Positions 33,901 through 39,900 of a stretch of 40,979 nt of DNA are shown one piece after another. Position numbers: made by a program. Positions within the stretch are counted from its first letter, which is position 1. Each line of letters opens with the position of its first letter. Origin of the DNA: a virus (taxonomy: Duplodnaviria > Heunggongvirae > Uroviricota > Caudoviricetes); the IMG/VR virus record IMGVR_UViG_2703718797_000012. The stretch is one strand, 5' to 3'.

Positions 33901-36900
33901 TCGTCTCGATAGCCTGCAATCGGTGATGGCTTTGAGAGAGCATCCTGAACGATTTGTAATAACTCAGAGTTCATTGACCTTCCGTTAGCCTCTGCTCTTA
34001 ATTTCAATTTTTCTCTTACTTCCAAAGGCATACGGAAGTTAAAGTGCGGATCGTCTCTAGCCATGCCATCACCCCAAGTTAGTGTATTGACATGATAGAA
34101 GCACTCTACTATATTCTCAATAGGTCCACGGTGGACCTATATTGTGAGGTAAATATGAAAGGAATGAGCAAAATGCCGCAGTTCAATTTGCGGTGGCCTA
34201 AAGAAGTATTGGATTTGGTGCGTAAGGTGGCGGAAGAGAACGGGCGATCTGTTAACTCTGAGATTTACAAGCGAGTAATGGACAGCCTGAAGAGAGAGGG
34301 GATTACGGTATGAAGGTGTCATTGCTTGATCGTTCTTTACAATTTTTGTCTGGCGCAATCATTGTAGTTTGCTTGCTCGTGATTTTTACATCGTTAATCA
34401 ATATGTATCAATCAGGGGAACGATTGACAAAGACGATAGAGGAAAAAAAATCAGTCTCAAATTACGAAGTATCACATGCACATAACGATTTAGTAGAAAG
34501 CCTTGACCGTATTAACAAGAGGCTTGACGAGACAAATATGCTACTTAAGCAAATTCAAAATGAAGTGGAAAAACGTTGAAGCCCCAACTGCGGGAACAGT
34601 CAGGGCTTCGGTTGTCGGTAAATTCGTGGAGAAAAACCAACATGAATAGTATAGCAATTTTAGAAGCAGTGAACACCTCTTACGTGCCTTTCAATGGTCA
34701 GCAGATTTTAACCGCTGTGGCTGCCGGAGTGACTTATGTAGCGATGCGTCAAATTGTGGAAAACATTGGTATCGACTGGACTGGTCAATCTGTTAAGTTG
34801 CGTAAAATGAAGGACAAATTCAACTGTAGAGATATCTCTATGGTTGCCGCTGATGGCAAGTTACGTAAGCTTTTATGCATCCCGCTGAAGAAGTTAAATG
34901 GATGGCTGTTCAGCATCAACCCTGAGAAAGTTCGAGCTGACATCCGCGATAAACTGATTCAGTACCAGGAGGAATGCTTTAGCGTGCTGCATGACTACTG
35001 GACTAAAGGCCATGTAGTTAATCCACGCAAAGCTAAAAAGGCGTTGCCTGGTAAAATCACCACTGAACAGCAGGAAGCCATTAAACAACTCGTCATGAGT
35101 CGCGGTCAGTCTCTGCCAAAAGAAAAACAGGCGAAGGCAATGATTACCATGTGGTCGTCACTGAAATCTCATTTTGGGTGTTCATACAAAGAAATCAGCG
35201 AGGAGCAGTTTACCGAAGCTCTGTCACTTGCAGCTCGCGTTCCGCTTGAAGGTGAGTTCATCGGCAAACAAGAGAAGAAAACCAACGAGCTTTCTGCAAA
35301 AGAAGCAAACAGCCTTGTATGGTTATGGGATTATGCCAACCGCTCACAGGCATTATTCCGCGAACTGTATCCGGCGCTAAAACAAATTCAATCGAACTAT
35401 TCCGGCAGATGCTACGACTACGGTCATGAGTTCTCGTATGTTATCGGAATGTCGAGGGACGTTTTAATCAATCACACACGAGATGTTGATATCAATGAGC
35501 CAGACGGACCAACGAATCTTTCCGCATGGATGAGACTTAAGAATAAAGAATTACCTCCTTCAGTACATAACTACTGACAGATAACCAACGTAACGACCCA
35601 GCTTCGGCTGGGTTTTTTTATGCCCAAAATTCACCGCAGCAACTAAGCGGCGATGGCCTTGATGGATAGCACTACACAAAAAGTGTAGTGCAAAAAGCAA
35701 ACAAATACTCACCGTAGCTACGCTGCGGCGATTCCTTGTATCTGGAGCAAATTAAATGACAGACATTACAGCCAATGTTGTGGTAAGCATGCCTTCACAA
35801 CTCTTCACTATGGCTCGTTCTTTTAAAGCCGTAGCCAATGGCAAAATTTATATCGGTAAAATTGACACTGACCCTGTAAATCCTGAAAACCAGATTCAGG
35901 TTTATGTGGAGAACGAAGACGGCTCTCACGCTCCTGTTTCGCAACCAATAATCATTAACGCTGCTGGATATCCGGTATATAACGGACAGATTGCCAAATT
36001 CGTTACCGTGCAAGGCCATTCTATGGCTGTTTATGATGCGTATGGTGCACAGCAGTTCTATTTTCCCAATGTGCTGAAGTATGACCCTGATCAACTACGG
36101 CAGCAATTAGAAGACCCAGATGGAGCGAATAAATACCCAAAACTTCAGATAGCAAGATGGAGAGACAGTTATGATGTAAGAGGTTGGGGGGCTATTGGTG
36201 ATGGTGTTCATGATGATACATCAGCTCTATCAGAATTACTTTCTGTTGCAACAGGTGGTGAAAAGATAGATGGGCGAGGGCTTACTTTTAAAGTATCAAC
36301 TCTTCCAGATGTCAGTCGATTTAAAAATGCTCGTTTTTTATTTGAGAGAATACCGGGTCAGCCTCTTTTTTATGCTTCTGAAGATTTTATCCAGGGAGAG
36401 TTATTTAAAATTACAGATACACCGTGGTACAACGCCTGGACGCAGGATAAAACGTTTGTATATGACAATGTCATCTATGCGCCTTTTATGGCTGGAGACC
36501 GCCATGGTGTAAATAACCTCCATGTTGCATGGGTTCGCTCAGGAGATGACGGGAAGACCTGGACAACGCCGGAATGGCTTACAGATTTACATGAAAACTA
36601 TCCCACAGTTAACTATCACTGCATGAGTATGGGGGTTGTCAGAAATCGCCTTTTTGCTGTAATTGAGACGCGGACCGTGAGCGGAAATAAACTGCAGGTT
36701 GCAGAGTTGTGGGATCGCCCAATGAGTCGCAGCCTTCGCGTTTATGGTGGTATAACGAAAGCAGCAAATCAGCAAGTCGCTTATATTCGCATTACTGATC
36801 ACGGATTATTTGCTGGTGATTTTGTCAACTTCTCAAACTCTGGTGTTACAGGTGTTACCGGGAATATGACGGTGACTACTGTTATTGATAAAAATACTTT

Positions 36901-39900
36901 TACAGTTACGACGCAAAATACCCAGGATGTGGATCAGAATAACGAGGGTAGATACTGGAGTTTTGGTACATCATTTCACTCGTCACCATGGAGAAAAACC
37001 AGTCTTGGAACTATTCCTTCTTTTGTTGACGGAAGCACTCCTGTTACTGAGATTCACAGTTTTGCGACGATTAGCGATAACAGTTTTGCTGTTGGCTACC
37101 ATAATGGTGATATTGGTCCACGCGAGCTTGGGATACTCTATTTCTCTGATGCTTTCGGTTCTCCTGGTAGCTTTGTTCGCAGACGCATACCTGCAGAATA
37201 TGAGGCGAATGCATCTGAGCCATGTGTAAAATATTATGATGGCATTCTGTATCTGACGACCAGGGGGACATTAAGTACTCAACCCGGTAGTTCATTGCAC
37301 AGAAGCTCTGATTTAGGTACATCATGGAATTCTCTTCGCTTCCCAAATAATGTTCATCACTCAAACCTTCCTTTTGCCAAAGTTGGCGATGAGCTGATTA
37401 TTTTTGGCAGTGAGCGCGCATTTGGTGAGTGGGAAGGAGGAGAACCTGATAACCGTTATGCAGGAAATTATCCAAGAACATTTATGACCAGAGTTAACGT
37501 CAATGAGTGGAGTCTGGATAATGTAGAGTGGGTTAATGTTACTGATCAGATTTATCAGGGCGGAATAGTTAACTCTGCGGTTGGTGTTGGTTCAGTTTGT
37601 ATCAAAGACAACTGGCTGTACTACATTTTCGGTGGGGAAGACTTTCTAAACCCATGGAGCATAGGGGATAACAACAGAAAATATCCTTATGTTCACGATG
37701 GTCACCCGGCTGATTTGTATTGTTTCAGGGTGAAAATTAAACAGGAAGAATTTGTTTCAAGGGATTTTGTCTACGGAGCCACTCCTAACAGAACGCTTCC
37801 TACTTTTATGTCGACGTCAGGCGTGAGGACGGTTCCTGTACCCGTTGATTTCACAGATGATGTTGCCGTCCAGTCACTGACTGTCCATGCAGGTACATCA
37901 GGACAAGTTCGCGCGGAAGTCAAACTTGAGGGTAATTACGCCATTATTGCGAAGAAAGTACCGTCTGATGATGTTACCGCTCAGAGATTAATCGTTAGCG
38001 GAGGTGAAACAACGTCTTCAGCAGATGGTGCAATGATAACGTTGCATGGTTCCGGAAGCAGTACTCCACGTCGCGCGGTATATAACGCACTCGAACATCT
38101 TTTTGAGAACGGAGATGTTAAACCTTATCTTGATAATGTAAATGCTCTTGGTGGTCCGGGAAACAGGTTCTCGACAGTTTATCTTGGCTCCAATCCTGTG
38201 GTTACCAGTGACGGAACATTAAAGACAGAGCCGGTCTCTCCTGACGAAGCATTGCTGGATGCCTGGGGTGACGTCAGGTATATCGCTTATAAATGGCTGA
38301 ACGCTGTCGCTATAAAGGGGGAAGAAGGGGCGAGGATACATCATGGTGTAATCGCGCAGCAACTTCGTGATGTTCTTATTTCTCACGGACTCATGGAAGA
38401 AGAAAGCACAACATGCCGCTATGCCTTTCTTTGCTATGACGATTATCCCGCAGTATATGATGACGTCATTACTGGCCAAAGGGAAATGCCGCTGACTGAT
38501 AATGACGGGAGCATCATTGTTGATGAGGATGATAATCCAGTGATGGTAATGGAAGACATCATTGAGCGCGTTGAAATAACGCCAGCAGGATCTAGATGGG
38601 GGGTCAGACCTGATCTCTTATTCTATATCGAGGCGGCATGGCAGCGCAGAGAAATAGAAAGAATAAAAGCTAGGTTAGACTTAATAGAAGGGAAGCACTA
38701 AATGTTTCGTTGGCGTCAAAAATATGAACTGCTCACATAAAGAAGTAAGTACATTGGCAAAAAACATTGACGTCAACGAAATTAAATATAAAAATTTAAA
38801 TGCTTTTTAATGACAAGAAAAGTAACTAGTGGTAAAATAACGTAGGATACTAATATGTCAAGACTCAAGACTCAAGACTCAAGACTCAAGACTCAAGACT
38901 CAAGACTCAAGACTCAAGACTCAAGACTCAAGACTCGTTTTCCGTTGATGATAATGGATCAGGTAATATTTTTGTATGTGGAGATCTTGTAAATAGCAAA
39001 GAGAATAAAGTTCAGTTCAATGGAAACAATAACAAACTTATTATAGAAGATGATGTTGAGTGTCGATGGCTTACCGTAATATTTAGGGGTGATAATAATT
39101 ACGTAAGAATACATAAAAACAGTAAGATTAAAGGTGATATTGTCGCAACAAAAGGTTCAAAAGTTATTATCGGTAGAAGAACGACAATAGGTGCAGGTTT
39201 TGAAGTCGTCACTGATAAGTGCAATGTTACAATTGGCCATGACTGCATGATAGCAAGAGATGTTATTTTGCGTGCATCAGATGGGCATCCTATATTTGAT
39301 ATTCATAGCAAAAAAAGGATTAATTGGGCAAAAGATATCATTATATCTAGTTACGTATGGGTAGGGAGAAATGTCTCTATAATGAAAGGGGTATCTGTTG
39401 GAAGCGGATCTGTCATTGGGTATGGGAGTATTGTAACTAAAGATGTGCCATCTATGTGTGCAGCAGCCGGTAATCCAGCAAAAATAATAAAAAGAAATAT
39501 AATATGGGCAAGAACGGATAAAGCGGAGCTAATTAGTGATGACAAGAGATGCTCCAGCTATCATGCGAAGCTCACGCAATAAATATAAAACATCATGCAG
39601 ACATATTACCAATATTAATATAAGGTAATAAAAATATAATTTACAAAAAAGCCCGTTGGAAGCGACGGGCATTAACCGCGGTAATGGATAAATTATTAAT
39701 GTTTTTAGATTGTGAACGATATCATATTGTGCGGAAGTAGTGAAGTAACCATGTAAAATGATTGTTTCATAGCCTATGAGACACACAAGGCTTTGTGCTC
39801 TTCGATAGTTGTTAAGGCGGATCACTCTACCTTCTCATCAAGCCAATCCGCCCACCACTGCATCATTTCTCTGCGCTTATCGAGATACTGAGCATGGTTG

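Follow-up and report, generated by a model that had tools for sequence, protein, structure and literature searches.

The tailspike gene and its surroundings

We analysed a stretch of 40,979 nucleotides of viral DNA (hereafter the window), in which a tailspike gene of the siaK1 type is preceded by a terminator-like hairpin and followed by neuO and a prophage integrase gene (Table 1). The 981-aa ORF that an earlier reading of the sequence without database searches (the sequence-only reading) had placed here was exact in its coordinates, strand and ATG start. None of the overlapping or antisense ORFs inside this gene, the longest of which has 114 aa, had support as a gene.

Table 1. Positions of the tailspike gene, its domains and motifs, and the neighbouring elements in the window.
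Feature	Position	Strand	Residues and size	Basis
Terminator-like hairpin after ant	35595..35614	+		Terminator scan; homologous to annotated P22 ant terminator
Endosialidase tailspike gene (siaK1 type)	35756..38701	+	981 aa, precursor 109.2 kDa	ORF with ATG start
P22-type head-binding (tail-hub docking) domain	35756..36094	+	aa 1-113	PF09008, PDB matches
Linker/neck	36095..36190	+	aa 114-145, ~35 aa	Alignment, tblastn
Endosialidase N-terminal extension	36191..36391	+	aa 146-212	PF12218, E 8.8e-37; aligned with endoNF chain from residue 246
Six-bladed beta-propeller catalytic domain	36392..37741	+	aa 213-662	PF12217, E 1.2e-233; residue mapping
Asp-box 1, SGDDGKTW	36539..36562	+	aa 262-269	Aligned with endoNF SGDDGQTW
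Lectin-like beta-barrel inserted in propeller	36725..36973	+	aa 324-406	PF12195, E 1.2e-46
Asp-box 2, SSDLGTSW	37304..37327	+	aa 517-524	Aligned with endoNF SRDIGQTW
Stalk (triple beta-helix/beta-prism), including R804 (endoNF R897)	37742..38206	+	aa 663-817	PF12219, E 7.4e-78
Intramolecular chaperone/autocleavage domain (Peptidase S74)	38207..38698	+	aa 818-981, 18.7 kDa	PF13884, PDB 3gw6
neuO polysialic-acid O-acetyltransferase contingency gene	38855..39582	+		Hexapep PF00132; CUS-3 annotation
Prophage integrase	39822..40979	-		Pfam integrase domains; blastn against CUS-3

The tailspike gene shares 99.0% DNA identity with siaK1 ("endosialidase tailspike protein") of phage CUS-3 (CP000711) and 99.8% with copies in E. 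coli K1 and APEC genomes. The encoded protein has the same length, domain order and joint as the CUS-3 tailspike (siaK1 or EndoN-CUS-3; ABQ88383.1, CAJ29292.1) and is identical to ABQ88383.1 at 973 of 981 positions (99.2%), with eight substitutions. The gene almost certainly encodes an endosialidase tailspike of the CUS-3 type, belonging to a temperate, P22-like podophage of E. coli K1. The CUS-3 endosialidase tailspike was reportedly described by Stummeyer and colleagues in 2006 and by King and colleagues in 2007. The protein is therefore not new, having already been published and biochemically characterised as the CUS-3 protein; the sequence-only reading was right in substance but did not recognise this, and it left out two parts of the body, namely the beta-barrel insert within the propeller and the triple-beta-helix stalk.

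The gene begins 141 nt downstream of the hairpin, which is near-identical in P22 and CUS-3 when aligned and is annotated in P22 as the 'ant terminator' at the same place. Mnt, Arc and Ant (Pfam P22_AR_N and P22_AR_C) are encoded further upstream, and the order of ejection-protein genes, immI (mnt, arc, ant), tailspike, neuO and int is that of P22 and CUS-3. P22 gp9 likewise lies after immI, with the same ribosome-binding region and upstream ant terminator. On both its gene position after immI/ant and its PF09008 head-binding domain, the window protein belongs with the P22-like tailspikes.

Directly downstream of the tailspike gene, and separate from it, neuO provides further context. It carries 11 AAGACTC heptad repeats at 38860-38936, compared with 19 in CUS-3, and is out of frame in the window. 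Phase variation of neuO follows a multiples-of-three rule on these repeats (PMC8653822). The integrase gene closes the tailspike-neuO-int module, and CUS-3 carries the same neuO and int downstream of its tailspike at ~99% identity (blastn).

This similarity does not extend to the whole prophage. Only 21.4 of 41.0 kb of the window align with CUS-3 (CP000711) by blastn, and region 18170-25006, which holds the terminase, portal, scaffold and coat genes, had no blastn match to CUS-3. The coat protein is of the P22 type (2xyy, E 2.7e-216), and its kinship to the CUS-3 coat is no more than distant (8skg, E 1.4e-26). Collinear similarity to CUS-3 over the whole genome, virion assembly genes included, was thus not found, and on these comparisons the prophage is a different mosaic from CUS-3 that carries a CUS-3-type tailspike-neuO-int module. 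Because the prophage is a mosaic, none of the E. coli genomes covered at least 80% of window positions 20000-40979. Among 5,426 complete E. coli genomes, 157 have the same head-binding/endosialidase junction; O2:K1:H5 APEC and human isolates are among the best E. coli matches.

Domain architecture and the module joint

Six Pfam domains exceeded their curated cut-offs and tile the tailspike in endosialidase order. The first, Head_binding (PF09008), is matched over model positions 1-113 of 113 (E 2.8e-66) and is 76% identical to the corresponding domain of P22 gp9 (1LKT, 2XC1). Tailspike structures of P22 and Sf6 match aa 1-127 with E-values of 1e-44 to 1e-64. The PDB matches to the domain include 1lkt, 2vnl, 8tvr and 7sg7, and HK620-type structures are also among them. 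These matches bear out the proposed P22-family adaptor of ~115 aa. No P22 match was found past about aa 127, and forcing the later domains onto P22 gp9 gave identities of just 21-29%. The P22 gp9 body is a right-handed beta-helix endorhamnosidase without detectable similarity to the window protein and without a cleaved S74 domain; the body is unrelated to the P22 enzyme, as had been proposed.

DNA similarity ends at gene nt 339 for P22 and nt 338 for IME10, and most E. coli matches to the head-binding domain end at window positions 36090-36093. These end points together place the module joint at 36094/36095, close to the swap that the sequence-only reading had put at about 36100. The tailspike is a module fusion with its 5' joint at this position. 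The linker that follows is common to K1F endoNF and to the unrelated tailspike of the P22-like phage Gally. It is 56% identical to K1F, the tblastn match to which begins already at aa 114, while Gally DNA is 88% identical over gene nt 1-449. Judging from these alignments, the linker is likely the crossover zone. Upstream of it the anchors differ, that of K1F being T7 gp17-like (~210 aa) and that of the window protein P22 gp9-like. CUS-3, HK620, Sf6 and P22 are known to share the N-terminal domain, with CUS-3 bearing a K1F-type endosialidase, and this exact N-terminal module exchange has been described for CUS-3 EndoN (PMC5380687).

Beyond the linker, the protein has the same propeller with beta-barrel insert, stalk and S74 chaperone domain as K1F endoNF (gp17; 1V0E, 3GVL, 3GW6). 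At E=0, the endoNF structures 1v0e and 3gvl cover aa 145-817, while the phi92 endosialidase 4hiz matches at E 7e-273; identity to endoNF is 66% over the crystal construct (aa 146-817) and 56% over the C-terminal domain. Residues H250, R456, E488, R503 and R554 correspond to endoNF H350, R549, E581, R596 and R647, whose catalytic and binding roles are established (PMC12632334), and R554 is the residue aligned with the mutated position of the R647A chain 3gvj. The propeller domain, active-site residues, beta-barrel insert and stalk of the GH58 phage endosialidases are all present. By sequence, the sialidase-like body recognised earlier is a true GH58-type endosialidase.

Differences from endoNF include an insertion of seven residues at aa 423-429 and the replacement of K410 by G310 and of Q853 by M760, both of which are also found in CUS-3. 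We take endoNF Q853, with R837 and S848, to be a stalk binding-site residue. K410 was dispensable in phage-based deep mutational scanning of endoNF (PMC12632334).

Both Asp-boxes noted in the sequence-only reading are real. They align with those of K1F endoNF, and a shuffled protein would contain the pattern S.D.G.[TS]W 0.0012 times on average, with two or more copies in 0 of 200,000 shuffles. Of the two Pfam families suggested as a check, Peptidase_S74 was found, but the generic BNR model stayed under its threshold (BNR_2, 17.4 bits vs 31.4). The assignment is unaffected by this shortfall, since PF12217, the model specific to endosialidase propellers, scores 775 bits (cut-off 24) over its full length (1-367).

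The C-terminal domain is matched by Peptidase_S74 (PF13884) at aa 818-878 (41.6 bits, cut-off 22) and by the endoNF chaperone structure 3GW6 over aa 698-979 (E 8.2e-95). Further matches to it are GA-1 gp12 (3gud, E 1.4e-8) and additional phage fibres. S818, K823 and R804 are the equivalents of endoNF S911, K916 and R897, which form the Ser-Lys dyad and the stalk arginine of autocleavage (PMC8326128). The domain thus belongs to the Peptidase S74 (CIMCD/ICA) domains by sequence, dyad and stalk arginine; the proposed chaperone kinship stands, with a length of 164 aa and not ~150. Since the deposited chains of mature endoNF stop at the counterpart of T817, the scissile bond would lie between T817 and S818, with predicted products of 90.5 and 18.7 kDa.

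Polysialic-acid specificity and alternative readings

The domain layout and residue conservation of the tailspike come from this analysis itself, while for its enzyme activity and processing we rely on the literature on K1F endoNF and on the CUS-3 protein, which is 99.2% identical to it. The GenBank record of CUS-3 siaK1 lists endo-alpha-sialidase activity with direct-assay evidence (PMID 16689790), and CUS-3 EndoN is counted among the K1 endosialidases (PMC5380687). The DNA identity to this assayed gene argues for the K1 specificity that the sequence-only reading had put forward. From the near-identity to CUS-3 EndoN, we infer that the window allele is active, trimerises and is cleaved.

In the proposed mechanism, the trimerised tailspike would dock through aa 1-113 onto a P22-type tail hub, as the matching P22 and Sf6 tail structures suggest. 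The central body (aa 146-817) would bind the alpha-2,8-polysialic acid K1 capsule and cut it internally, so that the virion reaches the outer membrane. The active site would lie in the six-bladed propeller and comprise E488, R503 and R554 as well as H250 and R456, and the beta-barrel and stalk would offer additional polysialic-acid binding sites. After trimer folding the C-terminal domain is expected, from endoNF, to cleave itself off at S818 by Ser-Lys autoproteolysis, a reaction that would use K823, be aided by R804 and leave a mature subunit of ~90.5 kDa.

A decaying prophage remnant, whose tailspike would keep its fold and its binding but be catalytically dead or out of use, would be in keeping with an element that is a resident prophage, with a mosaic unlike CUS-3 over about half its length and with the adjoining out-of-frame neuO. 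However, the frame state of neuO is normal reversible phase variation and not decay, and complete virion gene sets are present as long ORFs. The 981-codon tailspike ORF is itself intact, and every catalytic and autocleavage residue is kept. The eight substitutions (aa 9, 43, 59, 121, 207, 767, 807 and 832) fall outside these sites, and at aa 207, 767, 807 and 832 the window agrees with the tail protein of the Uetakevirus phage vB_EcoP_ZX5, leaving the CUS-3 RS218 reference as the outlier. Considering this, we regard decay as highly improbable.

We give equally little credence to a shift in specificity from plain K1 towards O-acetylated polysialic acid or the mixed alpha-2,8/2,9 K92 polymer. 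Such a shift could be read into the differences from endoNF (the insertion FVDGSTP at aa 423-429, G310 for K410 and M760 for Q853), the identity of just 66% to its catalytic construct and the genetic linkage to the O-acetyltransferase gene neuO. Yet all of these features are also found in CUS-3 EndoN, a recorded K1 endosialidase, and near-identical genes sit in K1 strains. A functional K1 endosialidase tailspike remains the strongly preferred reading, and no observation speaks against it.

Module exchange among temperate K1 phages

The chimera is a textbook case of tailspike module exchange in K1 phages (PMC5380687, summarising Stummeyer et al. 2006). The enzymology and the chaperone mechanism have already been worked out on the K1F homologue, and the tailspike has little significance beyond its correct annotation. 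As a marker, the gene indicates that the host is a K1-capsulated E. coli lysogen that also has neuO, the linked switch for O-acetylation of the capsule.

The mosaic context and a near-identical Uetakevirus copy offer modest material on how fast receptor-binding modules move between temperate lineages. Three settings contain the endosialidase body at 99.6-99.8% DNA identity. In two of them it follows a P22-type anchor, in prophages whose head is either of the CUS-3 type or, as in this window, of the P22 type; in the third, the ε15-like Uetakevirus phages, the anchor is unrelated. The last is represented by the vB_EcoP_ZX5 tail protein (QTH80017.1), the body and chaperone of which share 99.6% DNA identity with the window over gene nt 522-2914. 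Its Pfam endosialidase domains are identical to those of the window protein, but it comes from another phage genus, its N-terminus of ~230 aa is unrelated and lacks Head_binding, and its last ~10 codons differ.

These settings may reflect a CUS-3-type endosialidase body that has recently and repeatedly been mobilised as a cassette with fixed breakpoints, for which the linker serves as a universal recombination adaptor; we hold belief and doubt in this to be evenly balanced. The first breakpoint may fall at gene nt 338/339, following the P22 head-binding domain, the second at nt 521/522, within the N-terminal extension of the endosialidase, and the third at nt 2914/2915, close to the stop codon. 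If the cassette reading is true, the locus would record fine-scale, datable traffic of receptor-binding modules among temperate K1 phages, with no new mechanism. The stretch shared with K1F endoNF and the unrelated Gally tailspike spans aa 114-150. Between the window and CUS-3 tailspike genes, 21 of the 28 nucleotide differences fall within the first 361 nt, the head-binding domain.

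CUS-3 relationship and endosialidase identity of the tailspike

The tailspike gene shares 99.0% DNA identity over its full length with siaK1 of CUS-3, an Escherichia coli K1 prophage (CP000711), and 99.8% with genes annotated as "phage tailspike protein" in complete E. coli genomes, an O2:K1:H5 APEC strain among them. In GenBank, siaK1 is annotated as "endosialidase tailspike protein", with endo-alpha-sialidase activity recorded there as directly assayed (PMID 16689790). A review table citing Stummeyer et al. 2006 lists CUS-3 (CAJ29292.1) among the K1 endo-N-acetylneuraminidases, with an enzyme mass of 109 kDa (PMC5380687). 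The feature is already known, as an allele almost identical to a protein that has been published and assayed, and its interest is therefore low. The two proteins differ at eight of 981 positions (aa 9, 43, 59, 121, 207, 767, 807 and 832), none of them functional.

A Pfam scan with curated thresholds found six domains above threshold that tile the tailspike protein (see table). Among solved structures, the head-binding domains of P22, Sf6 and relatives matched aa 1-127, while the catalytic constructs 1V0E and 3GVL of K1F endoNF (gp17 of phage K1F) matched aa 145-817 at an E-value of 0. The phi92 endosialidase 4HIZ also matched the protein (E 7e-273), as did 3GW6, the endoNF stalk and chaperone domain, over aa 698-979 (E 8e-95). 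No P22 tailspike structure gave a match reaching into the body. A sequence-only reading had proposed a P22-family adaptor followed by a sialidase-like body unrelated to the P22 endorhamnosidase and a C-terminal chaperone-type domain of ~150 aa. The adaptor and the separate origin of the body are borne out. The body is of the sialidase kind, more precisely a true endosialidase whose propeller carries a beta-barrel insert and is followed by a stalk. The chaperone-type domain is confirmed by 3GW6 and by Peptidase_S74, for which a Pfam check had been suggested, although it measures 164 aa. With one further refinement, concerning the joint and linker, both the description and the interpretation were correct.

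The two Asp-boxes quoted in that reading are indeed present, at aa 262-269 and aa 517-524, and both align with their counterparts in K1F endoNF. A shuffled protein is expected to carry 0.0012 copies of the pattern, and not one of 200,000 shuffles carried two or more. Two such boxes in one protein go far beyond what chance would give.

Features of the tailspike and its surroundings (window positions in nt unless marked aa)
Feature	Position	Strand	Detail
Tailspike ORF	35756-38701	+	981 codons, ATG start; ORF scan of the window
Head_binding	aa 1-113		Pfam E 2.8e-66
End_N_terminal	aa 146-212		Pfam E 8.8e-37
End_beta_propel	aa 213-662		Pfam E 1.2e-233
End_beta_barrel, nested in propeller	aa 324-406		Pfam E 1.2e-46
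End_tail_spike	aa 663-817		Pfam E 7.4e-78
Peptidase_S74	aa 818-878		Pfam 41.6 bits, cut-off 22
Propeller with barrel			70% identity to endoNF
Stalk			56% identity to endoNF
C-terminal domain			56% identity to endoNF
Crystal construct	aa 146-817		66% identity to endoNF
neuO, polysialic-acid O-acetyltransferase contingency gene	38855-39582	+	3' of tailspike; ATG at 38855
Mnt-like gene	33816-34064	-	
Arc-like ORF	34092-34313	+	Pfam Arc E 4.7e-27
89-aa ORF	34310-34579		no Pfam match; largely without CUS-3 DNA match
P22-type antirepressor (ant)	34576-35577		5' part unaligned to CUS-3 ant

Residue positions were transferred from full-length K1F gp17 by alignment. The endoNF catalytic or substrate-binding residues H350, R549, E581, R596 and R647 (PMC12632334) correspond to H250, R456, E488, R503 and R554 and are all conserved. 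The same holds for S911 and K916, which form the autocleavage dyad, and for R897, an arginine of the stalk (PMC8326128); they correspond to S818, K823 and R804. Since the last residue of the deposited mature endoNF chains aligns with T817, cleavage is expected to yield aa 1-817 and aa 818-981. A 109.2 kDa precursor would thereby give a 90.5 kDa mature subunit and release an 18.7 kDa domain.

Three differences from K1F endoNF are shared with CUS-3: a seven-residue propeller insertion, FVDGSTP (aa 423-429; 37022-37042), and the replacement of Q853 by M760 (38033-38035) and of K410 by G310 (36683-36685). Q853 probably has a role in endoNF. K410 was dispensable there in phage-based mutational scanning (PMC12632334).

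Module joint, linker and a second chimera

The sequence-only reading had placed a module swap at about 36100, and three lines of evidence now narrow it. DNA similarity to P22 gene 9 covers gene nt 1-339, and that to IME10 nt 1-338. When a 400-nt probe across the joint was compared with 5,426 complete E. coli genomes, most partial matches ended at 36090-36093. Protein similarity to K1F endoNF starts at aa 114. Together these limits put the 5' joint at 36094/36095, directly after the conserved ...NVLKYDPDQ motif and ahead of a shared linker. The junction occurs in exactly this form in 157 of the 5,426 genomes, and at least 80% of the tailspike gene in 181 complete E. coli genomes.

The linker comprises ~35 residues (36095-36205, aa 114-150) and is held in common with K1F endoNF at 56% amino acid identity. 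The tailspike gene of the P22-like phage Gally is 88% identical in DNA over gene nt 1-449 (L006, 2501-2949), linker included. Its body is unrelated to the endosialidase, and a Pfam scan finds nothing in the Gally tailspike beyond Head_binding. Because the linker lies behind two different virion anchors and before at least two different receptor-binding bodies, we infer that it is plausibly the homologous crossover zone; it also looks like a portable neck.

In the temperate Uetakevirus vB_EcoP_ZX5 (L004, 1803-4922), the stretch from gene nt 522 to 2914 (36277-38669), with the endosialidase body and the chaperone domain, recurs at 99.6% DNA identity. Near-identical copies are found in the unannotated records Phi05_2388 B and Phi05_1999 B (99.6-99.8% across the ZX5 and Phi05 records). 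In ZX5 the body follows an N-terminal part of ~230 aa that is unrelated, and the final ~10 codons differ from those of the tailspike. The ZX5 protein is another chimera of very recent origin, whose breakpoint falls within the End_N_terminal domain, and the identity of the body suggests that it passed from one phage lineage to another very recently.

Mosaic prophage background

The tailspike-neuO-int block (35709-40979) is ~99% identical to CUS-3; across the whole prophage, only 21.4 of 41.0 kb aligns. The terminase-portal-scaffold-coat region (18170-25006) has no DNA match in CUS-3. The coat protein (gene 23432-24727) is P22-type (2XYY, E 2.7e-216), whereas the CUS-3 coat 8SKG is only a distant match (E 1.4e-26). 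By these comparisons the prophage is a mosaic and not CUS-3 proper: its tailspike-neuO-int module is CUS-3-type and its head module P22-type. Genomes of P22-like phages are expected to be mosaic in this way.

Of the 28 nucleotide differences between the tailspike gene and siaK1, 21 fall within the first 361 nt (35756-36116), in the head-binding domain. This suggests that the gene acquired its 5' end by exchange with a different P22-like phage, and the clustering fits with a virion module unlike that of CUS-3. The immI region (33816-35577) also differs from CUS-3, and 34084-34571 is unaligned in the DNA comparison. The TTG listed as the start codon of ant probably lies too far 5', since P22_AR_N starts only at aa 36.

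Sequences flanking the tailspike

The GC content falls from 0.42-0.48 in the tailspike to 0.33-0.38 at neuO, which is followed by an integrase gene on the opposite strand. After its ATG, neuO has 11 perfect AAGACTC repeats (38860-38936), compared with 19 in the CUS-3 reference. Full-length NeuO is made only with repeat numbers in multiples of three (PMC8653822). With the hexapeptide acetyltransferase frame out of register with that of the ATG, neuO is in the OFF phase; a total of 12 repeats would bring the two back into frame.

The tailspike start is preceded by GGAGCAAATTAAATG, a ribosome-binding context common to the P22, CUS-3 and Gally tailspike genes. A terminator-like hairpin ~141 nt 5' of the start is the site annotated as "ant terminator" in P22. 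Between the two lies a 68-nt segment (35641-35708) that is present in P22 and missing from CUS-3. Within it is a perfect 9-bp inverted repeat, GCACTACAC-AAAAA-GTGTAGTGC, with the hairpin at 35669-35691.
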